Part shown: positions 5,042 to 40,158 of the stretch, one piece after another
How positions within the stretch are numbered: position 1 is the first letter of the stretch
Layout: every line of letters starts with the position of its first letter
DNA from: an uncultured Alphaproteobacteria bacterium
Lineage (GTDB): Bacteria; Pseudomonadota; Alphaproteobacteria; Rs-D84
Direction of reading: 5' to 3'
Length of the DNA: 64,000 nucleotides
Assembly: GCA_947175875.1 (NCBI GenBank)
Contig: CAMWON010000001.1
Span: 81,809 to 145,808 of the forward strand
Translations under genes and position numbers: made by a program
Notes under the pieces: model-generated
Database searches by the model: none
What the model saw: only the letters and a program-made list of their open reading frames with translations
Told to the model about the DNA's origin: nothing

Positions 5042-6397
5042 TTGTCCAGGCAAAGCGGAAATTTTTTATTACAGGCCCTGCTGGCATTGTCCCTGATTTT
5101 TGCGTTCATACCATTTTTGGCAGAGCGTCTGGCGGCGCGCGAAACAGACGCCCAGATGTATTCCGCCACGCGCCAGGTTGATGTTGCGGTGACCGCCGCG
5201 CGCATATTCATCCGTGAAAATGCGTCCAATATCGGATATGACCGGACGGTTGTCGCCGGCGCTGATTTCGGTGATTTGCTGGAACCGTACGGCCTGCCGC
5301 TGGGGTTTGTGCCGCGCACGGCCCTGGGCCAGGATATCAGCCTGATTATCAACAAGACCCCGCAGGAGGTGACGGCGTATCTTGAACTGTCGGGCGGAAA
5401 TCTGTCCGCGGTGCGTGCGGCGGAACTGGCGCGTCGCATCGGGTTCTATGCGACGCCGGTCGGTTCTGTTATAAATGTCGGCATCGCCCTGGACGAGGGG
5501 TTTTCCGACGTCGTTCGCCGCAATGAAAATAATCTGGAGGCGGGCGCCTTTTTAACCGACCTGGACATGGGCGGGTTTGTGTTTGACAATGCCGGCGCCG
5601 CAATTGCGCGAACCGGCACGTTTAATACGGCGATGATGAATACTTTGTCCGTCTCGGGAACGGAAAACGGCCGCAAGGTCCGCAACAAGATAGAGAATTT
5701 GTCCGCCACGCGCGCGGTGTTCCAAAGCAAAAGCGGCGAGGCCGCACTGTCGCTGGTTCGCGGAACGTTAACCGCGGACAGTGTCGATGCGCGAACCGTC
5801 GCGCGGTTTGGCGATGCGGGGAATTTCACTGCGGACACCGCGTCCGTGTACGAGTTTTCCATGACGGCGGGCCGTACGGGATTTTCGGGCCCGGGCGCCT
5901 GGAACGTCCGCGGCAACGTCGTGTCCGACAGAATAAATTTCAGTGTGGAGCGCCTGGACGTGTCGTCGTATATAAATGTCGCCCGCGGCCAGGACGTTTA
6001 TATAAATCCCGATGATTTGGAATACAGCGCGCGCAGCGGAATAGAAACCGACACCTTAATCGCATCCAATGTCACGATGCGCGACCAGACGTCCGACGCG
6101 TTGTCGTCTGGCGGGAACGGTGCGGTTGTTATTGACGTCCGCCCGGCCGGAACGTCTTATCTGCCGGACGCATATGTTAACAATGTCGACAACGCCGCGT
6201 TCGAGATTATCGCGGCCCCCGACGACGCGGACGGCAAGACAGTTGACTGCAAGGCGGTCGTGTCACAGCTTGACGGTTCTTATAATCAGCGCAGCCTGTC
6301 GCAGTACATAATATGCCAGTATGTGTATTGGCAGCGGCTGGAAATGCGAATGAACATAATACAGTGTCTAAAGGAAGGCCGCGGTGACTGCATTTAA
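5042..6397 (+). CDS. Large pilin-like protein 1 (451 aa), class III-signal-like N-terminus with Q at mature position 5 (GspK/PilX-like in lacking E5); TTG start
   Basis: N-terminus MSRQSG|NFLLQALLALSLIFAFIPFLAE. The body is Gly/Ala/Thr/Asp-rich. A strong RBS precedes the start. It overlaps the next gene by 14 nt. Confidence 0.55.
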   Translation: MSRQSGNFLLQALLALSLIFAFIPFLAERLAARETDAQMYSATRQVDVAVTAARIFIRENASNIGYDRTVVAGADFGDLLEPYGLPLGFVPRTALGQDISLIINKTPQEVTAYLELSGGNLSAVRAAELARRIGFYATPVGSVINVGIALDEGFSDVVRRNENNLEAGAFLTDLDMGGFVFDNAGAAIARTGTFNTAMMNTLSVSGTENGRKVRNKIENLSATRAVFQSKSGEAALSLVRGTLTADSVDARTVARFGDAGNFTADTASVYEFSMTAGRTGFSGPGAWNVRGNVVSDRINFSVERLDVSSYINVARGQDVYINPDDLEYSARSGIETDTLIASNVTMRDQTSDALSSGGNGAVVIDVRPAGTSYLPDAYVNNVDNAAFEIIAAPDDADGKTVDCKAVVSQLDGSYNQRSLSQYIICQYVYWQRLEMRMNIIQCLKEGRGDCI

Positions 6398-7601
6398 CAA
6401 AGGCGTTTTTGCAGAAGGGTCGCGTGGCGCCGGTTTAACGGAGGCGTTGCTGGCGATGGCGATTGTCGGCATCGCGGCGCCGTTTGTTTACAGCCAGGTT
6501 GCGGCCACCACGCGCAGTGCGGCCGACATTCGGACCGCGTCGCGGATTATCGATATGCGCGGGCCGGCATTGAATTATGTCCGTATGAATGGCGACGCGT
6601 GGCCGGACACGGCCCAGATACGTTTGACGCCCGAAGATTTGGCGCGGATTGCGGACGGCGCCACCGCCGGATTCATAGACAAATATACAGTGTCCGGCGC
6701 CGGTGTTACCGACATATATCTGGCGTTTGATTTGGGGACGGACCGTGTGCGCACGGCGTCCATTGCGCGCAATATCGGAATAGATGCCGCGGTTGTCGGC
6801 GACGACGGTATCGCATACGGTGCGTCGTGGGCCGTAACCGCGCCGGATTTCATGCCGGGCGATTTGATATACAGAATATCTCGTGATGTCACGGGCGAGG
6901 ATACGGCAAAATATTTGCATCGCGGAACATCGGGCGAAGACGGCCTGAATGTCATGCAGCGCGATTTGAACATGGGCGGCCACAACGTCTATGACATCGG
7001 CGGTGTTGTTGCAAAATCCGCCAAGATAAACGGTGCGACCGCCATGTTCGTCGAAACACAAAGTGTTGCGGCCGACGCGGCGTATTTTTCATCGGGCGCC
7101 AATATAGACGGCGGCGTGGCGTCATTGGGCGCGTTGCGCGTGACCGGCGACGTGACGGGCTTTCGCAATATTGTGGCGACGACGCTCAACGGTGCCGGAT
7201 ACACCACGTCGGGTCGTGTGATTACAGACCGCGCAACGGTCACAAATTCGGTCAATGTCGCACGCGATTTGACGCTGAAATCGGACACCACCCGCACAAT
7301 CAGCGGTTTTGACGGCATCACGGCCAGTACTGTTGCGACGCCGTTCATATCCGCGGACGAAATAATTTTTTATGATAATTTTGGACTGACTCTGTCGGGG
7401 GAGCTGTTAATGTCAACGACGGCGCCGCTGAAAATCGGTTCGTGGACATTCCCATCGACAACGCCGCCAAAGTTTTCAAGATTGACACTGTCGCGCGCCG
7501 AATATCCGGCCGCGGTTCGAAAAACGGAATTTGCACCGATAATGCGGCGCGGATGGATGGACGGGCTTATTGAAAATGAAACTGCGCAGAACAATTTTTA
7601 A
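6384..7601 (+). CDS. Large pilin-like protein 2 (405 aa), prepilin-type N-terminus with E5; GTG start after RBS AAGGAAGG
   Basis: N-terminus ...SRG|AGLTEALLAMAIVGIAAPFVYSQ has G-x4-E, a hydrophobic helix and a conserved P-F. It overlaps both flanking genes. Confidence 0.6.
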   Translation: MTAFNKGVFAEGSRGAGLTEALLAMAIVGIAAPFVYSQVAATTRSAADIRTASRIIDMRGPALNYVRMNGDAWPDTAQIRLTPEDLARIADGATAGFIDKYTVSGAGVTDIYLAFDLGTDRVRTASIARNIGIDAAVVGDDGIAYGASWAVTAPDFMPGDLIYRISRDVTGEDTAKYLHRGTSGEDGLNVMQRDLNMGGHNVYDIGGVVAKSAKINGATAMFVETQSVAADAAYFSSGANIDGGVASLGALRVTGDVTGFRNIVATTLNGAGYTTSGRVITDRATVTNSVNVARDLTLKSDTTRTISGFDGITASTVATPFISADEIIFYDNFGLTLSGELLMSTTAPLKIGSWTFPSTTPPKFSRLTLSRAEYPAAVRKTEFAPIMRRGWMDGLIENETAQNNF

Positions 7602-8886
7602 CGGGCCGTCTGAATGTGGCGGCATGCTGGTTGAATTGATGCTCAGCGTTGCGCTGGCCATGATTGTGATACCTTTTGTTTTCAGATATCATCAGCGCGC
7701 TGTCCGTCGTGCCGAAAATATTGCCGTTTCCCGCCAGATGGAGGGGGTGCAAAGCGCGCTGGAACGTTACATTATGGCGCATCGCGATGAATTGCTGGCG
7801 CCGGTTGGTAAAAATATAACACGTGTTGCGCTGGCGGATTTGGTGCCGTTCGGCGTGTCCGAGGATTTGGTCTCCGCCGCCGGTGACAAGTATCAGCTGC
7901 GCGTGCTAAAGGCCGCCGATTTCAACAGCCAGGCGACCCTGCAGGGTGTGGTCGTATTGAATGACGGCGACATCAGTCCGTTGCGCACGCGCGAGATAGT
8001 GAACATCGCCGGCGACCGCGCGGGTTTTCTGGATTCTGGGCGTGCATACGGTGCGTTCGGCACGTGGAACAGTGCGGCACTGGATTTGGGTCTGGGTGAC
8101 GGGGGCGGAATTGTGGAAACGACGTCCGCCCTGCGCGACAATGCAAAATATTTGTGGCGCGTGCCGTCCACGGATGCGTCCGATGCGACGATGCTGTCGG
8201 CGCTGTCGCTGGGCGGGCACGATATCGCGTCGGCGTCTTTCTTTAACAGCCGCAGCGCCCGCTTTGACGAATTGCTGTCCGTGGGTGAAATCGCCGCCGG
8301 CAACATAATTTTTCAAAACAGAACCTCGATTGATAAAAAGTTGAACGCCGTTTCGTCAACCGTGTCGGGCGCGCTGTCATCGGACTCTAAAAATATGGAC
8401 GTCGCAGGTAAGTTTTCATTGGCCGATTTGGGAAAGTTTTCGGGCTTTTCCGTGTCGGACCTGTACGTGACAAACATGACGCTATCCGGTATCAGCGTCA
8501 GTGACACCGGCGATGTCGCATTGCTTAAAATAAACCAGGCGCTGGACATGACGTCGGGTCGTATCGACGCAATGTTTGTGACGGTGGGGTTTGCGGGGTC
8601 CATAACGCCGCGCCTTGTCGTGCGCAATCGTATCGAAGATTCGATAAATTCGTCTTATTACTGGGATGCGTCGCGCGGTGTGGCGAATTTTTCAGACGTA
8701 TCCTTTGCGGAATTGTCGCGTATGGCGCCGCTGGCCCTGGCGCGCGAGGGGCGGGGCACCACGGCCGCGCAAATATTCGGCGCGGTTGCGGCAAACAAGA
8801 ATGCGACGGCGTCCGATTACATGAATGCGATAACGAAAATCCAGGAAGAGGTTCGTAAAAAATATCGCGCCTTGAATTTGCAATGA
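7576..8886 (+). CDS. Large pilin-like protein 3 (~436 aa), prepilin-type N-terminus with E5
   Basis: N-terminus MKLRRTIFNGPSECG|GMLVELMLSVALAMIVIPFVF closely resembles the G|FTLIELMIV consensus. An alternative TTG start lies at 7570. Confidence 0.65.
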   Translation: MKLRRTIFNGPSECGGMLVELMLSVALAMIVIPFVFRYHQRAVRRAENIAVSRQMEGVQSALERYIMAHRDELLAPVGKNITRVALADLVPFGVSEDLVSAAGDKYQLRVLKAADFNSQATLQGVVVLNDGDISPLRTREIVNIAGDRAGFLDSGRAYGAFGTWNSAALDLGLGDGGGIVETTSALRDNAKYLWRVPSTDASDATMLSALSLGGHDIASASFFNSRSARFDELLSVGEIAAGNIIFQNRTSIDKKLNAVSSTVSGALSSDSKNMDVAGKFSLADLGKFSGFSVSDLYVTNMTLSGISVSDTGDVALLKINQALDMTSGRIDAMFVTVGFAGSITPRLVVRNRIEDSINSSYYWDASRGVANFSDVSFAELSRMAPLALAREGRGTTAAQIFGAVAANKNATASDYMNAITKIQEEVRKKYRALNLQ

Positions 8887-10885: not shown

Positions 10886-10913
10886 TTGTCTGAAATTCTT
10901 TTTATGATATAAT
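10886..10913 (+). promoter_or_regulatory. Putative promoter (TTGTCT-16-TATAAT) for the giant Cys-rich protein gene
   Basis: The hexamers were read in the AT-rich intergenic stretch. An RBS (GGAG) precedes the ATG at 10940. Confidence 0.35.
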
Positions 10914-10939: not shown

Positions 10940-13900
10940 ATGAGTCTCTTTAAAAAATCAATTGGTTTTCTGGCTGTTTTGACGGCATTTCCGGCGTCAT
11001 ATGCATTGACGGCACGTCCCAGTGTCATCGGCACCGCGTCGGCGCGTATGCCCACAATGACGGCGCTGATTACAAATACCGGCACGTCCGGCACGGGTTC
11101 CACCACAACATCGACGTTGCTGGCCAATGCCGAATGCATTGACGCATACACGTCTTGTATGAAGGGTGGCGACGCCTGTGGTTCTGATTTTGAAGAGTGC
11201 ACGAACAAGGTTCTGTTCCACGGCAAAATGCCTCAGTGTTTGTCCACTTTGGCCCAGTGCAGCACGGCCGGCGTGACCAGCCTGTTCGGTACCGGCACGG
11301 TAACGGCGCTGTCCACCGTTGCGACCAAGAACAGCTATGGCGAGGTGACGGATTACACATACCCCACAGACGGCAGTGTTCTGGGACAATTGATTATCGG
11401 TGCGGCGATATCGAACAAATATGACACATCCACCTGTGTAAAGCGCTATACGTCTTGCTTAAAGAAAGACAGTGTCTGCGGCAATGATTTTGAACTTTGC
11501 ACAACCGACAAAGAATTTAGAAAACAGCGCGTATTCTGCGATTCCACTTTGGCCCGTTGCCAGTCAGAGGGCCTGATAGAACTGTTCGGCTCCGCCAACA
11601 CTTCGACCACGCCCAACGCGACCAGCCGCATTGGCGAAATGATTGCCGAAGGCGCGGCATTGGCGGCTGTAAACGCGGTATCCACCTGCTACAAGGTTGT
11701 GGACCAGTGTATCTTGAACGCATGTGCGGCGAATCCGTACAAGTGCTTTGAAAACAGCACGAACACCACCGTAAATTTGGTTGAGGCCATCAACACCGGC
11801 GTCGCCACGGCGGAAAACACGGCCGCATCCACAATTGCGAACGTTACATCCGGCATGGATATCGTAACGAAATCCAACGTCGCGTCTTATATCAAGAACA
11901 GCTGTCTGGATACAATCGGATCCAACAAATACTGCTATGCCACGTTTATCGGCAACGGCCAGATGCCGACCGCGTCCCAGCTGAAGGACGAAGACAACCA
12001 GGAAGAAATCTATGACGAGGCGTATTCCGCCCGCATGAGCAGCGCCATGAAGGCCAAGATTTCCGACTTGGTCGATCAGTTTGACACCAAGGCAAAGCAA
12101 AAGTGCACCGAAACAATCAAGACATGCGTAATGCGCGTCTGCGGTTCCGGTTCTGGCGCGGCCTGCTATTCCCAGGTGTTCGGCAATCGTGACAAGTCCA
12201 TTAACAACAGCGTTACATATCCGGAACTGCAGACCGGCTGTGCGGCGGTTGTCAACACCGATGCGTATTGTAAGTATGCCGCGGCAAATCCGAATACAAC
12301 CGGCGGTTATACATATTCTTATATAAACAACGATGCGTTCAGCATTCTGTTCCCGGAATATGAATCCGGCGGCAACGACCCGATTGGCGTTATCTCTGCG
12401 TTGAACGCGACGCTGGCCAACAGCTACAGCGATGCGGCCATCGCCACGATGAAGCGCCAGTGCCAGGCGGTCGCAACCAGTTGCGTAAAATCCATGTGCG
12501 GCGCGGATTATCAGAACTGCTATCGCAACCGTACGGACGTTTATTCTTCTTTGACCAACACCGGCGATTCGTCGTTCGATAAAAGCATGAACAAGGTTGG
12601 CGGCGTTCTGGATTACACAATCGTTTTGGGCCTGTGCCTGGATACGGTTAAGAACGCGTCTGTCTGCGAAGAACATCTGGCGATTGAACGCAACAAATTG
12701 AAAATTGCAAACAACAGCAGTGCGTCCGTATGGGGCGGTGCGAACAGCACGCGCGAAGGCTGGATTGACGCCGGCTCTGCCACGGCCGTGACAGCGACCA
12801 GCGAACAGGTTGCGGCCACCGACGAAAACGGCAATGCGCTGTGCACAACCAAGGGCGGCGGCGACCAGGGCGTATGCTACAGCGTTGATGCCTCCGGCAA
12901 TATTTATGACCAGCCTGTATACATCTCATATACGACATATGTTGAATCACAGGCGGCGTCGACCCTGTTCAAGGATTTGATTTACGACCTTGAGAAAGAG
13001 GCCCAGGCGAAATATAACGCGAAATTGACGAAACAGCAGAACATGTGCATGTCGTCCAACCAGGGTGGCGTTATGGGCAATCGTGAAATGGGCAGCACGT
13101 TCCTGTGGGTAAAGCTGAAATCCAACACGGTGCCAAAGGCATACCCGGTATCGGGTTTAAAGCCGTCGCAGTTCACGGCCAGCAACGACCTGTACGGTTC
13201 ATTCTGCCGTGTCCGCGTAACACTGCAGTCCGATGACAAAAAGATTCAGGACGTTATCGCCAAGGGTACCGATTGGGCCACGGCATATTTCGCGGCGGGT
13301 GATACGTTTACCTGCGGCTCCTGGATTCCGGAAAAAGCCCTGACGCAGTTGGCGGATGCAGTGGCGGCGGATGCCCGCGCGGACGAGGCCCGTGGCAACG
13401 GCAGAACCAAGGCTTGGATGGCTGTTCTGGGAACTGTCGCCGGTGGTGCATTGGGTGGTGTCGCAACCAACAAGATGCAGGACGGCGCATTCTTGGGCGG
13501 ACTTCTGGGAACCACTGGCAGCACTAAAAGTAGTGATGTGGCGGAACAATTGGGTGTGTGTGCTGGTGCTGCACGTGGCTATCAAGATGCAAAATCTGTT
13601 GATGACAAGGCCTCTTATTTGGCTCGTGCATCACGTGCGGTTAAACAACTGCAAGGTGCTGACAAAAATAAATTCGCAACGGATAACATTTCTAGCAAAT
13701 GTGCCAGAGCCACAGATGCAAGAAGTTGTTTAAGTGATTTGTTGTATGCGGCCAGCGTTGCCCATCGGGACTATGCTGATCTTGCTGATAAAACAGTAAC
13801 TGCCGTATCTGGCACTGCACGGGCTACAGAAAAGTCCACAACAGTAAAGAGTTCCGGTCAAGTTTTGACTGCAGATAGCTTGAGAGCACAGGTTCCTCAG

Positions 13901-14515
13901 TATACAAGACATGAATTGGCCGGCGTATCATGCGAATTCAATTGTGATGCAGTTGTTTCTGGCAAATATACTGGTACCAATACAGCGGTCTGCGGAAGTG
14001 TCACACAAAAATCTTGGGTGCCTACAACCGGAAAGTATTGCATGACAGAATCTAATGGTGGAATTCAAAAAGATGCAGATGTACGTTATATTGAATATAC
14101 TTATACTGTATATTACACCGATAATGATGCTGTTGCGTATAATCAAACATTAACAAATAGTGCATCTCAGGTCACTCAACATTCTAATGATGTAGAAACA
14201 GCGCGTAAAAAAGCGAATAGTGCGATGGCTGATTTGGAACAAGCGTGTGATTTAAGCGCACTGAATTCCGACCAGGCTAAGAAAGACGCACAAAAGCGTT
14301 CCATCACAACGGCCGTCGGTGCGGGTGTTGGTGCGATTGCGGGCGGTGTGCTGGCCTATCAGGCGACCAAGAGCATCCAGGATTCCAAACTGGACAGCGT
14401 TGAAAAAGCCGCCTATGACGAATGGATGAACGAAGTCGGTAATCATATCCGTTGCTTTGTCGGTGGCGACGAGGTCGGTATGTACGGCGATATCATCAGC
14501 ACGTCGATGGAGTAA
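10940..14515 (+). CDS. Giant (1191 aa) secreted/membrane-anchored Cys-rich repeat protein of unknown function
   Basis: It has a signal peptide and duplicated CxxYTSC[ML]K...C G[SN]DFE[EL]CT...LFG modules plus further C-x5-C-x3-C motifs. Two glycine-zipper TM-like segments are present (TVAGGALGGVA..., GAGVGAIAGGVLA). A low-GC block lies at 13500-14230. Confidence 0.7.
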   Translation: MSLFKKSIGFLAVLTAFPASYALTARPSVIGTASARMPTMTALITNTGTSGTGSTTTSTLLANAECIDAYTSCMKGGDACGSDFEECTNKVLFHGKMPQCLSTLAQCSTAGVTSLFGTGTVTALSTVATKNSYGEVTDYTYPTDGSVLGQLIIGAAISNKYDTSTCVKRYTSCLKKDSVCGNDFELCTTDKEFRKQRVFCDSTLARCQSEGLIELFGSANTSTTPNATSRIGEMIAEGAALAAVNAVSTCYKVVDQCILNACAANPYKCFENSTNTTVNLVEAINTGVATAENTAASTIANVTSGMDIVTKSNVASYIKNSCLDTIGSNKYCYATFIGNGQMPTASQLKDEDNQEEIYDEAYSARMSSAMKAKISDLVDQFDTKAKQKCTETIKTCVMRVCGSGSGAACYSQVFGNRDKSINNSVTYPELQTGCAAVVNTDAYCKYAAANPNTTGGYTYSYINNDAFSILFPEYESGGNDPIGVISALNATLANSYSDAAIATMKRQCQAVATSCVKSMCGADYQNCYRNRTDVYSSLTNTGDSSFDKSMNKVGGVLDYTIVLGLCLDTVKNASVCEEHLAIERNKLKIANNSSASVWGGANSTREGWIDAGSATAVTATSEQVAATDENGNALCTTKGGGDQGVCYSVDASGNIYDQPVYISYTTYVESQAASTLFKDLIYDLEKEAQAKYNAKLTKQQNMCMSSNQGGVMGNREMGSTFLWVKLKSNTVPKAYPVSGLKPSQFTASNDLYGSFCRVRVTLQSDDKKIQDVIAKGTDWATAYFAAGDTFTCGSWIPEKALTQLADAVAADARADEARGNGRTKAWMAVLGTVAGGALGGVATNKMQDGAFLGGLLGTTGSTKSSDVAEQLGVCAGAARGYQDAKSVDDKASYLARASRAVKQLQGADKNKFATDNISSKCARATDARSCLSDLLYAASVAHRDYADLADKTVTAVSGTARATEKSTTVKSSGQVLTADSLRAQVPQYTRHELAGVSCEFNCDAVVSGKYTGTNTAVCGSVTQKSWVPTTGKYCMTESNGGIQKDADVRYIEYTYTVYYTDNDAVAYNQTLTNSASQVTQHSNDVETARKKANSAMADLEQACDLSALNSDQAKKDAQKRSITTAVGAGVGAIAGGVLAYQATKSIQDSKLDSVEKAAYDEWMNEVGNHIRCFVGGDEVGMYGDIISTSME

Positions 14516-14531: not shown

Positions 14532-14558
14532 AGCGCCCCTAAATGGGGCGTTTTTATT
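14532..14558 (+). terminator. Rho-independent terminator (GCGCCCC-taaat-GGGGCG + T-run)
   Basis: Hairpin plus TTTTTATTT directly after the stop at 14515. Confidence 0.7.
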
Positions 14559-14580
14559 TGACCGGATTACATACAACTTT

Positions 14581-14615
14581 CATTGCAAAGGAGCAACGCG
14601 ACCGCAGCAATCCAG
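14581..14615. repeat. Degenerate copy of the CATTGC...GCAATCCAG hairpin repeat
   Basis: CATTGCAAAGGAGCAACGCGACCGCAGCAATCCAG shares both arms and the 3' end with the repeats at 14694 and 24679. Confidence 0.4.
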
Positions 14616-14693
14616 AGTAAAGCGGTAATGTTCATTATTTTACTGGACCGCCACGCTCCGCTCGCGGTGACAACGATTCTTGTACCCGTTGTC

Positions 14694-14724
14694 ATTGCGA
14701 GCCCGCAGGGCGTGGCAATCCAGA
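14694..14724. repeat. Hairpin repeat TTGTCATTGCGAGCCC-gca-GGGCGTGGCAATCCAG
   Basis: The 17-nt stretch TTGTCATTGCGAGCCC is identical to the copy at 24676. The inner stem is GCCC/GGGC. Confidence 0.5.
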
Positions 14725-14735
14725 CGTAATATATG

Positions 14736-15017
14736 TTATCTTGTCACCGTACGCAGAGCCTGCATTGCGACGCCAGTATATTTCAATTGATTTCGTGCGT
14801 CATAATATGCACCGTATGCGTCTATAAATGCGTTGGCGGTTGACTTTGGGCCGCTGGGCCATATCGCGTATCCCGTCGCCAGTTCTATTAACAGGCGCGT
14901 GCCACCCAACGGCCGCCATTCCAGCGGCAGATTGATTAAGTCGTCATATCCGTGACGCATCGCCACGCGACGGCACTCTGCGATAAGAGATTCCAGTTCC
15001 CGGTTGCTTATTTTCAT
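14736..15017 (-). CDS. Hypothetical small protein; 3' end of rlmN overlaps its start
   Basis: Likely start is MKISNRELESLIAECRR... No recognised motif; could be spurious. Confidence 0.3.
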   Translation of the reverse strand: MKISNRELESLIAECRRVAMRHGYDDLINLPLEWRPLGGTRLLIELATGYAIWPSGPKSTANAFIDAYGAYYDARNQLKYTGVAMQALRTVTR

Positions 15018-33738: not shown

Positions 33739-34059
33739 GTGCGGGCTCTCAAGTTGAGATGAAACGAAAAAAGAAATCTCAACCTCTAGGAAATTCGGCG
33801 GTTCGCAGGTAATTCTGAAAGAAATCGCAACATTGTGAATAAAAGCAGCTCATCAAAAATTCAAGAAGGGATGTGCAGACAGTTGAATTTGGAAATATCC
33901 AAACTTTGACTAAGTCAAATGTGCATATCCTAGACAGGTAGTAGGTTTACATATTAAACCTCGTTAAAAACTTGTCTTGCGAATAATTATATGTAAAGAC
34001 GAACTGATATTAAATGTCAGTGTTGTTTATGCACAGGACTTAAACCACAAGTTTTTTAG

Positions 34060-35560
<1,501 letters not shown>

Positions 35561-35645
35561 ATAGAGAATACCGTTTCCACGAAAACGGTCAAATCCAAAG
35601 CGACTGTCTGAACATCTCTTTTTGAAAATGGGTAAAATTCTGCTG

Positions 35646-35722
35646 GGTCAGTAGTTCAGTTGGTTAGAATGCCGCTCTGATACAGCGGAGGTCGAAGATT
35701 CGAGTTCTTCCTGACCCACCAC
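35646..35722 (+). tRNA. tRNA-Ile (anticodon GAT) in the 16S-23S spacer
   Basis: GGGTCAG...CTGACCC acceptor stem, anticodon loop CTGATAC, encoded CCA. Confidence 0.9.
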
Positions 35723-36021
35723 TTAAATTGATGAGGTTGGAATCAAAAACAAGTGTTTGTTTTTGATTCCAGATGTTCTGATGAATATCTTCGGAATCTG
35801 CTTTTATTAGCAATCATTGTAAATCGGTTTTTAATGTCGTAAATCAAACTTTATGGAAACATGACTTTTGATTTATTGAACATCGTAATCTCAAAAATCT
35901 TTCTAAATAGAGTAATCACGAAAGTGATAATTCAATTAGAGAAGCAAGAATCAACTTAAATGCTTAAAAAACTCATTAAGTTCTTTTGATTGTGTTTGAA
36001 GACTTTCTCTTCAAGCATAAG

Positions 36022-38775
<2,754 letters not shown>

Positions 38776-38849
38776 TCGTTTGACTTATGTCAGACGATTG
38801 CTTGAAGAGAACGTTGACATTGATTCTTGAATCATGTATTATGATGTTC

Positions 38850-38975
38850 GCTGGATTTATTCTGGTGATTATTGAGCGGGAGCCACCCTCTGTTCCATTC
38901 CGAACCAGACAGGGAAACCCCGTATCGCCGATGGTACTTTGGCTTAAGCCACGGAAGAGTAGGTCGTCGCCAGAG
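38850..38975 (+). rRNA. rrf: 5S ribosomal RNA (approximate ends)
   Basis: Conserved CCGAAC...GCCGATGGTAC...GAGAGTAGGTCGTCGCCAG core. Confidence 0.8.
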
Positions 38976-39033: not shown

Positions 39034-39078
39034 TTGCTTTTTTTATATCAGAGGATTAAGCTAAAACAAGTTTATTGG

Positions 39079-40158
39079 GAGATATTTATGACGAAAGTAA
39101 TAGCAATGTTTAATCAAAAGGGTGGTGTGGCGAAAACCACGAATACGTTTCAGTTGGGTTGGAAGTTGGCCCGGTTAGGTAAACGTGTTTTATTGGTTGA
39201 TGCTGATCCGCAATGTAATTTAACTGGTCTTGCCTTGGGCATCGGTGATTATGATACCCTGTTCGGATTTTACGACAGTAAAAGAAATAATGATATATTT
39301 TCTGCTTTAGCTCCTGTCTTTAACATGAGTGATATAGAAGGGAATGATATCAGGTCTTATGAAACAACACAGATAATCAAAAATGATAATTTACGTTTGT
39401 TGGCGGGACATGTAAAATTAGCTGAATTTGATATGCAAGTCGCAACGGCGATAACAAGTAGCGCGGGTTTGCCGGTTTTACGTGCGTTGATTGGGGCTTT
39501 TAATAAATTGATTCGCGGAGCTGCGGAAAGAATGGGGGCAGATATTGTGATAATTGATATGAGCCCCAGCATTTCTGCTACAAATATGTGCTTGTTTATG
39601 GGGGCGGATTATTTCATTGTTCCAACTTCTCCTGACTTTTATTGTTATCAAGCAATAGATTCTTTGAGTGAAGTTTTTCCGAAGTGGTCGAAAACGATGT
39701 CAGAATTTAAAAATAATGGAGCGTTACCAAGAGCAAATCCGAAAATGCTTGGTGTGATTTCTTCAAATTATCGTGTTTATACTACCGATAAAAACGCGGA
39801 ACAAAAAACAATGGCGGCAGCATATAAAAAGTGGGACGAAAAGATACGCAATATAATTTTAGCTAAATTGGTTCCGGTGCTTGCTAAAGAGTCAATGATA
39901 ATAGATGAAGCTATTTTCCGTAAGGCCGTGAATTATGATACACCTTATAATTTAGCAAATATACAGGATGTCAATACATTGATAGCAAAATCGCAAGAGT
40001 TATCTAAGCCGGTTTATGAAATTGTTGAAAAAGAATACGGAACCGGAGCGCAGTGGTCGCATATGCAAAAAGGTAAAGAGGTTGGTGCAAAAATAGTTGT
40101 GGAGGAGGTTGACAAGGTATACACAAATATGGCTCAGGCTATTTTAGCTATGATATAA
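39079..40158 (+). CDS. ParA/MinD-family P-loop ATPase (360 aa, extended) in an AT-rich island
   Basis: Deviant Walker A MFNQKGGVAKTT, LLVDADPQ and IIDMSPS motifs. About 38% GC versus about 55% in flanks. Confidence 0.75.
   Translation, partial: EIFMTKVIAMFNQKGGVAKTTNTFQLGWKLARLGKRVLLVDADPQCNLTGLALGIGDYDTLFGFYDSKRNNDIFSALAPVFNMSDIEGNDIRSYETTQIIKNDNLRLLAGHVKLAEFDMQVATAITSSAGLPVLRALIGAFNKLIRGAAERMGADIVIIDMSPSISATNMCLFMGADYFIVPTSPDFYCYQAIDSLSEVFPKWSKTMSEFKNNGALPRANPKMLGVISSNYRVYTTDKNAEQKTMAAAYKKWDEKIRNIILAKLVPVLAKESMIIDEAIFRKAVNYDTPYNLANIQDVNTLIAKSQELSKPVYEIVEKEYGTGAQWSHMQKGKEVGAKIVVEEVDKVYTNMAQAILAMI

Follow-up and report, generated by a model that had tools for sequence, protein, structure and literature searches.

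A low-GC block in a cysteine-rich protein gene of Candidatus Enterousia is probably a hypervariable domain with old, mosaic alleles

The DNA analysed here (the window) is a stretch of 64,000 nucleotides from an uncultured alphaproteobacterium of the Rs-D84 lineage (positions 81,809 to 145,808 of contig CAMWON010000001.1, assembly GCA_947175875.1); all coordinates below are those of the window. An open reading frame (ORF) on the plus strand at 10940-14515 encodes a protein of 1191 residues, including 44 cysteines, and contains an internal block of low GC content (13527-14278, residues 863-1113). We conclude that this block is probably a single hypervariable domain of a conserved envelope protein, for which old, mosaic allele classes coexist in each species. 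In each species many very old allele classes of the block are found together. Homologous recombination has exchanged sub-segments between alleles, making them mosaics, and the glycine-zipper segments that flank the block stay conserved together with the rest of the gene. As part of the same conclusion, and with the same good likelihood, this is a conserved, single-copy, chromosomally syntenic envelope protein gene of a Candidatus Enterousia species.

A synonymous-site GC trough within one gene

The GC content of third codon positions (GC3) was measured in sliding 60-codon windows. It lies at 0.50-0.77 in the first ~850 codons of the gene, at 0.17-0.33 between approximately nucleotides 13520 and 14240, and at 0.58-0.62 over the final ~280 nt. 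GC content at first and second codon positions hardly changes across the gene, indicating that the compositional shift sits in synonymous positions. At fourfold-degenerate sites the GC fraction is 37/122 (0.30) for residues 863-1113 and 326/478 (0.68) elsewhere in the gene (Fisher p = 4e-14), and overall GC is 43.1% for 13527-14278 versus 54.1% for the remainder of the gene. Within the block alanine is preferentially encoded by GCT/GCA rather than GCG/GCC, threonine by ACA rather than ACG/ACC and lysine by AAA rather than AAG, with further shifts toward CAA, AAT, TAT and GAT. An earlier note on this DNA had reported a low-GC switch of ~730 bp inside the gene, a change from GCG/GCC/ACG-type codons to GCT/GCA/ACA/AAA and a return of high GC over the last ~280 bp, and each of these features was recovered by the sliding GC3 and the codon counts. 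The GC values given there (~42% for the block, ~57% for the rest of the gene) were slightly off, the contrast between them being real. The block was also found where the note had placed it, starting directly after the first glycine zipper (residues 825-862) and stopping before the second (residues 1121-1141).

Compared with the other 38 long ORFs of the window, for which 100-codon windows have a mean GC3 of 0.64 (standard deviation 0.076), the block windows (0.22-0.32) lie 4-5.5 standard deviations under the mean, a deviation from the host of the kind used to recognise acquired islands. The only other gene of the window with GC3 this low is found at 39034-40158 on the plus strand, directly 3′ of the 5S rRNA gene. 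It encodes a ParA/MinD-like ATPase (AAA_31, E = 3e-30), has a GC content of 37.5% and a GC3 of 0.34, and may have been acquired.

The block is hypervariable between strains of one species

All sequences compared in this study are metagenome assemblies. Segment-wise BLAST identified proteins sharing 95-99% identity with the window protein over residues 1-853 and 82-100% over residues 1098-1191. In the block the same proteins are merely 28-44% identical or cannot be aligned, with a single protein (P0001) reaching 79% identity. At the DNA level, conspecific loci are ~94% identical up to position 13526, where similarity is lost, and it resumes at 14279-14300. Because these breakpoints match the composition boundaries, the GC3 trough and the homology gap are one object, and the breakpoints refine its coordinates to 13527-14278. 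When 23.3 kb was aligned with a conspecific locus (L002, median identity 94%), all 300-nt windows of less than 80% identity overlapped the block, and again only block-overlapping windows fell below this value in 15.5 kb aligned with L004.

Among 121 family proteins the block ranges in length from 84 to 280 residues and forms 77 clusters at 70% identity. Each backbone species contains 2-6 block clusters, and the window's own species, represented by 11 sequences, has six; this is the pattern of Wolbachia surface protein (WSP) and flagellin, in which many divergent alleles occur in one species between conserved flanks. In each of the 85 loci having both flanks, a block occupies the same position. 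All alleles have the cysteine at residue 874, and at least 90% of sequences have that at residue 1103. A cysteine-rich beta segment and a YTYTVYY-type motif are further features common to the long alleles, and short alleles (~90-105 residues) appear to keep the helical part only. The blocks of all orthologues, which lie at the same position, are homologous though highly diverged.

Two contigs bearing an Enterousia-type gene, L020 (CAVGNU010000002.1) and P0091, are recorded as Bacteroides fragilis and Muribaculaceae, respectively, and are probably mis-binned.

Alleles of the block are mosaic and older than the species backbone

Five conspecific alleles were aligned as DNA using MAFFT, and divergence was calculated by the Nei-Gojobori method. 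The alleles proved to be mosaic, as intragenic recombination would make them, with at least four sub-segments (all read on the plus strand) having different nearest relatives. Sub-segment A (13527-13800) is 85-98% identical to L004, a similarity that extends from 13504, and cannot be aligned to L001, L002 or L005. Sub-segment B (13801-13929) is diverged from every compared strain, with 44-63% identity to L004 over 13800-13930. Sub-segment C (13930-14112) is 82-92% identical to L001, which within the block has no similarity to the window before 13900, and 72-85% identical to L004 (over 13930-14140); it is unlike L002 and is the piece that distinguishes L001 from L002. Sub-segment D (14113-14278) is 63-92% identical to L004 (~63% at 14113-14200, then at least 90%) and 35-52% identical to the others, a range that for L001 holds to 14290. 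L001 and L002, which derive from different samples, are ~95-100% identical on both sides and 98-100% identical in the rest of the block. At ~13930-14082 their identity is 37-56%, indicating a clean replacement of ~180 nt, and the L001 piece is 90% like the window. The many alleles, the breakpoints and this mosaic reshuffling between strains bear out one suggestion of the earlier note, that the segment is a variable or recombined region.

The backbone has a synonymous divergence (dS) of 0.17-0.26 between conspecifics, with a ratio of nonsynonymous to synonymous divergence (dN/dS) of 0.05-0.15. Comparisons between allele classes of the block give a dN of 0.5-1.3 and a saturated dS (>1 or undefined). 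The window block is 34% identical to that of P0080, whose backbone is 65% identical, a value comparable to that between conspecific alleles (28-44%), and the blocks of the conspecifics P0008 and P0010 cannot be aligned to it. Because dS is saturated and block similarity crosses species, the allele classes must be either far older than the species backbone or unlinked to it. In one pair, P0106 and P0120, the backbones are 78% identical and the blocks 98% identical. For sub-segment C, recently shared between the window and L001, dS is 0.107 and dN is 0.132 (dN/dS ~1.2), and for sub-segment A, compared between the window and L004, dN/dS is 0.08.

Just before the first glycine zipper, residues 796-825 (13324-13413) have a conspecific dS of 0.5-3.2, versus ~0.2 for the backbone, with dN of ~0.05 and normal GC3. 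This raised dS could represent neutral diversity hitch-hiking beside a balanced polymorphism.

Low GC3 is a property of the segment across the genus

The GC3 comparison covered 85 loci, nearly every one from a separate species. Values for the backbone span 0.27-0.68 and those for the block 0.21-0.56 (mean 0.36), and in 73/85 loci the block is lower than its backbone (Wilcoxon p = 5e-13). Block GC3 follows backbone GC3 with a slope of 0.41 (r 0.49), compared with a slope of 0.81 (r 0.86) for the C-terminal control. In species with a backbone GC3 of at least 0.55 the block mean is 0.36 versus 0.61 for the backbone; the two differ by ~0.25 in these high-GC species and by 0.04-0.07 in the others. 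The trough thus belongs to the segment throughout the genus and is not an event in this genome; it is conspicuous here because the window's species is among the most GC-rich of the genus (window GC 52.5%, conspecific loci 53-55%).

These comparisons bear on the main proposal of the earlier note, that this genome gained a foreign low-GC cassette, or underwent a domain swap, in a single recent horizontal event. The sharp compositional boundary and the sharp homology boundary would both be expected of such a gain. However, orthologues throughout the genus vary and are AT-shifted at this very position, so that the orthologue composition to which the note had pointed as a check reveals a standing property of the locus and not an acquisition event. 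Moreover, the block is homologous to other alleles at the same position and is found in no other protein family among 1.84 billion representative proteins, a closely related allele occupies the same place in an independent sample (L004), and the block lies in syntenic core chromosome with no mobile genes or tRNA flanking it and no flanking repeats. We regard a recent gain as largely refuted and very unlikely. A genomic island or cassette was likewise rejected, as the block is present in all 85 loci among syntenic housekeeping neighbours and lacks flanking repeats.

The position of the trough could alternatively reflect selection on translation, with AT-rich rare codons slowing the ribosome between hydrophobic segments to aid insertion or folding and with the variability being incidental. 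The trough does lie exactly between two hydrophobic segments and recurs in orthologues, but in low-GC species block GC3 is close to backbone GC3, leaving no rare-codon contrast, and the trough edges match the homology breakpoints rather than the hydrophobic segments themselves. The saturated dS and the mosaicism would also be left unexplained, and we judge this explanation to be as improbable as a recent gain.

For a hypervariable domain with old alleles, two causes of the low GC3 may be considered. The allele pool may be shared with, or inherited from, a mostly low-GC genus; or sequence too diverged for heteroduplex formation may escape GC-biased gene conversion (gBGC) and approach an AT-biased mutational equilibrium. 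The former is supported by the sharing between P0106 and P0120 and weakened by this being a single case among 206 sequences. As for the latter, gBGC is reported to have been hypothesised for bacteria by Lassalle and colleagues in 2015. The two causes are non-exclusive and the data fit both alike, there being no suitable outgroup inside an allele class to polarise substitutions.

Searches for donor copies and mobile elements

Neither tblastn with 121 block alleles nor blastn with the block DNA detected a second copy in the 64-kb window, outside of which lies ~93% of the genome, and the silent cassette copies that the earlier note had suggested seeking were therefore not seen in the window. At 87 orthologous loci (775 kb in total) no block-like sequence was present outside the main ORF. 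A phmmer search of 1.84 billion representative proteins with the block returned a sole match, to one full-length member of the same family, and no short cassette ORFs. No relative was found when metagenome contigs were scanned with the block peptide or when IMG/VR viral contigs were scanned with the family alignment, PHROGs gave no match, and a profile search of PDB sequences gave insignificant matches only (E of at least 0.09). The longest repeat of any part of the block in the window is 12 nt.

Programmed antigenic variation would make the block an expression site that is rewritten by segmental conversion from silent cassettes in the ~1 Mb genome, in the manner of Anaplasma Msp2/P44, Neisseria PilE/pilS or VlsE. 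Such conversion is known in Anaplasma, the host here is a reduced-genome alphaproteobacterium, and the alleles are indeed mosaics of short segments between conserved flanks. The donor copies that this mechanism calls for were, however, missing from the window, from the 775 kb of orthologous loci outside the main ORF and from the representative proteins, and programmed variation is in our view unlikely. Targeted hypermutation, by a diversity-generating retroelement (DGR) or another local mutator, would account for variation limited to one segment of one gene. Against this, the window contains no template-repeat-like copy (longest match 12 nt; a reverse transcriptase was not searched for), a tract of ~750 nt with indels and with lengths of 84-280 residues is unlike DGR variable regions, and the differences between alleles are segment swaps. 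We give this mechanism almost no credence.

Three further origins were rejected. A phage origin, as a phage-derived receptor-binding protein, finds no PHROG match and no IMG/VR relative. A polymorphic toxin was discounted because a conserved 78-residue region follows the block, and after it a terminator hairpin and a convergent gene. A Neisseria origin was considered in view of a lone DNA-uptake-sequence-like 10-mer, which fits chance: the window has a single exact Neisseria DNA-uptake sequence (GCCGTCTGAA, 7605-7614), and 17/100 shuffles contained at least one match.

The block is predicted to form a discrete folded domain

Residues 796-1191 were modelled with AlphaFold2 using 37 long-allele homologues. 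The predicted local distance difference test score (pLDDT) is ~90-97 over most of residues ~865-1115, dipping to ~65-80 at three short stretches, and the model contains four long helices and a four-stranded sheet. The model thus predicts with confidence that the block is a discrete folded domain (a helical bundle plus a beta-sheet) and not a disordered linker. Both glycine-zipper segments have pLDDT <50 in the same model. A whole-protein AlphaFold2 model was weak (pLDDT 63.6, predicted template modelling score 0.34) and was used for secondary structure only. Foldseek searches of the PDB with the whole-protein model and with that of residues 796-1191 returned nothing with E <0.3. Overlaps with the four-helix bundle of cytochrome b562, which is generic, and with SipD/IpaD, which is very poor (root-mean-square deviation ~31 Å), were rejected and no fold was assigned.

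Because it has eight cysteines and a near-invariant cysteine pair close to its ends, the block may be extracytoplasmic, in oxidising surroundings. These cysteines and the conserved pair, the signal peptide and the predicted folded domain suggest indirectly that the block could be exposed on the cell surface. The description in the earlier note of a surface protein gene accords with this, the product being apparently an envelope or surface protein.

Architecture of the gene and its family

No Pfam or NCBIfam family matched the whole protein. Sub-threshold glycine-zipper matches at residues 1115-1144 are the sole traces of either database, PF13488 (Gly-zipper_Omp) scoring 13.8 bits under a curated cut-off of 25 and NCBIfam OsmB scoring 15.1 bits under a cut-off of 98. 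A protein search yielded 882 homologues, every one from gut metagenome-assembled Alphaproteobacteria, and the family is restricted to the Candidatus Enterousia / Rs-D84 gut Alphaproteobacteria and is uncharacterised. It is in GTDB genome records that these bacteria bear the name Candidatus Enterousia. The genus, in the order Rs-D84, comprises uncultured gut bacteria whose genomes measure ~0.75-1 Mb and whose partners are not known (PMC12306168).

The gene carries its own promoter-like site and its own terminator hairpin. The former, located by a consensus scan, lies at 10886-10913 on the plus strand and consists of TTGTCT, a 16-nt spacer and TATAAT with an upstream TG, 27 nt before the ATG. 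The remaining features of the gene are also on the plus strand. Hydropathy (hydrophobic residues 7-25) points to a probable Sec signal peptide (10940-11005), with a cleavage site, placed by eye, between ...PASYA and L. It is followed by a conserved, cysteine-rich N-terminal region of ~800 residues (11006-13411) with 35 cysteines, in which conspecifics are 95-99% identical by BLAST and dN/dS is 0.05-0.15, and which is mostly helical in the model. The first glycine-zipper-like hydrophobic segment (AWMAVLGTVAGGALGGVATNK...GAFLGGLLGTTG; 13412-13525, residues 825-862) was recognised by hydropathy and forms the conserved left flank of the block. On the right, the conserved flank contains the second such segment (SITTAVGAGVGAIAGGVLAYQ; 14300-14362, residues 1121-1141), recognised by hydropathy and the sub-cut-off PF13488 match. 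The gene closes with a conserved C-terminal tail of ~50 residues (14363-14515), supported by BLAST and the alignment, that has a normal, high GC3. A probable intrinsic terminator, a GC-rich hairpin followed by a T-run (gcgcccctaaatggggcg ttttta), is situated at 14534-14550; the T-run is on the plus strand, and the scan placed the hairpin on the minus strand.

Within the N-terminal region, residues 66-207 (11135-11560) form two tandem modules of ~100 residues with identical cysteine spacing (C-x6-C-x6-C-x6-C-x12-C-x6-C), and three C-x6-C-x4-C-x6/7-C motifs occur further on. From their spacing, these modules look like disulfide-stapled helical hairpins.

In all strains examined the locus belongs to the syntenic core chromosome. 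Upstream of the gene an RluD-like pseudouridine synthase is encoded, and RlmN, SurA-like, LptD, LptF/G, NusA and IF2 proteins are encoded downstream. Directly beyond the gene, the intergenic region at 14560-14735 is rearranged or different between conspecifics (identity 0-70%), with extra sequence in L002, and an imperfect inverted repeat is located at 14652-14673 / 14741-14762. Shortly upstream of the gene, three consecutive ORFs on the plus strand (5042-6397, 6384-7601 and 7570-8886) encode proteins of 405-451 residues with no Pfam match. Their N-termini, judged by eye, resemble prepilin or pseudopilin leaders (G followed by AGLTEALLAMAIVGIAAPF, G followed by GMLVELMLSVALAMIVIPF), and they may be large pilin-like proteins. 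A complete rRNA operon is present at 34059-38975 on the plus strand, comprising 16S, one spacer tRNA (35645-35718), 23S and 5S.

Discussion

A hypervariable domain of this kind could be generated and maintained as follows. New variants would arise when DNA of other strains, and occasionally of other species, enters by homologous recombination, anchored by the conserved glycine-zipper flanks and by patches of similar sequence inside the block. Phages, host immunity or partner cells would keep the exposed block variable by imposing diversifying or frequency-dependent selection, and its low GC3 would follow from its separate history.

Several observations weigh against this account. A cleaved signal peptide combined with a single membrane pass at the first glycine zipper would leave the block on the cytoplasmic side, a placement that conflicts with its eight cysteines unless the first zipper is a re-entrant hairpin. 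A hairpin of this type, as in small glycine-zipper outer-membrane lipoproteins, would reconcile the signal peptide with the cysteines. The dN/dS above 1 rests on just 180 sites, and sub-segment A gives 0.08. Near-identical blocks in different species were encountered once (P0106/P0120) among 206 sequences, suggesting that import between species is either rare or under-sampled. Finally, as all data are metagenomic, some of the mosaics could be assembly chimeras of co-resident strains.

Taken further, this last point would make the block itself an artefact in which reads of different organisms were joined. Hypervariable regions are readily assembled into chimeras, and the material consists throughout of metagenome-assembled genomes or contigs. 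Nevertheless, the reading frame is intact, the fold is predicted with confidence, the same architecture is found in more than 200 independent assemblies, and a 79%-identical allele with identical flanks is present in an independent sample. An artefact is therefore most unlikely, and a genuine hypervariable domain remains the reading that we favour.

Several known systems resemble this locus. Baldo et al. (2010, PMC2843615) describe WSP as having hypervariable regions (HVRs) that are shuffled between strains by recombination; the likeness lies in a reduced-genome alphaproteobacterial symbiont and a single-copy gene that has a great many alleles and conserved flanks but lacks silent cassettes. 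WSP differs in being an eight-stranded beta-barrel with four short loop HVRs, whereas here one contiguous folded domain of 84-280 residues, made of helices and a sheet, sits between the two glycine-zipper segments of a cysteine-rich protein of 1191 residues, with no kinship of sequence or fold. By analogy, WSP shuffling would appear to be the closest documented parallel. Anaplasma Msp2/P44 and Neisseria PilE likewise have a central hypervariable region, conserved flanks and segmental mosaic variants. They need silent donor pseudogenes in the same genome, however, and none was present in the sequence searched here; in addition, the variation described here is between strains and not within a clone. 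In enterobacteria, flagellin fliC and the O-antigen loci have conserved ends and an allelic, recombining middle of atypically low GC, with serotype-like allele classes older than the species backbone. The block is similarly conserved-ended, recombining and low in GC, with old allele classes, but the protein, fold and organism are unrelated and the trough scales with host GC across a genus. The glycine-zipper lipoproteins (PF13488; OsmB, SlyB/PCP and the Rickettsia 17-kDa antigen) share GxxxG-rich hydrophobic segments. They are small, in contrast to a protein of 1191 residues in which two such segments bracket a variable domain and score far below the cut-offs.

Surface proteins with a mosaic, hypervariable region of atypical GC are well known; what is new here is an example from an uncultured lineage and from a protein family that is uncharacterised. 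The block is the only strain-hypervariable part in the 23 kb compared, which makes it a ready strain-typing marker and the best current candidate for the surface that Enterousia shows to phages, host immunity or partner cells. More speculatively, and with the odds against it, the block may be the recognition module of an undescribed class of envelope proteins with which these obligate, reduced-genome gut bacteria meet the host, a partner cell or phages. This module would be a disulfide-closed helical scaffold between two glycine-zipper membrane hairpins that tolerates wholesale replacement and the insertion of a beta subdomain, and its AT-rich third positions would be the footprint of a long-term balanced polymorphism escaping gBGC. 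With a GC3 of ~0.36 in hosts whose GC3 is 0.27-0.68, the block offers an internal control for testing whether gBGC or selection keeps bacterial GC high. If the recognition module and its escape from gBGC are real, the locus would amount to a natural experiment, contained in a single gene, on how GC content is maintained in bacteria.

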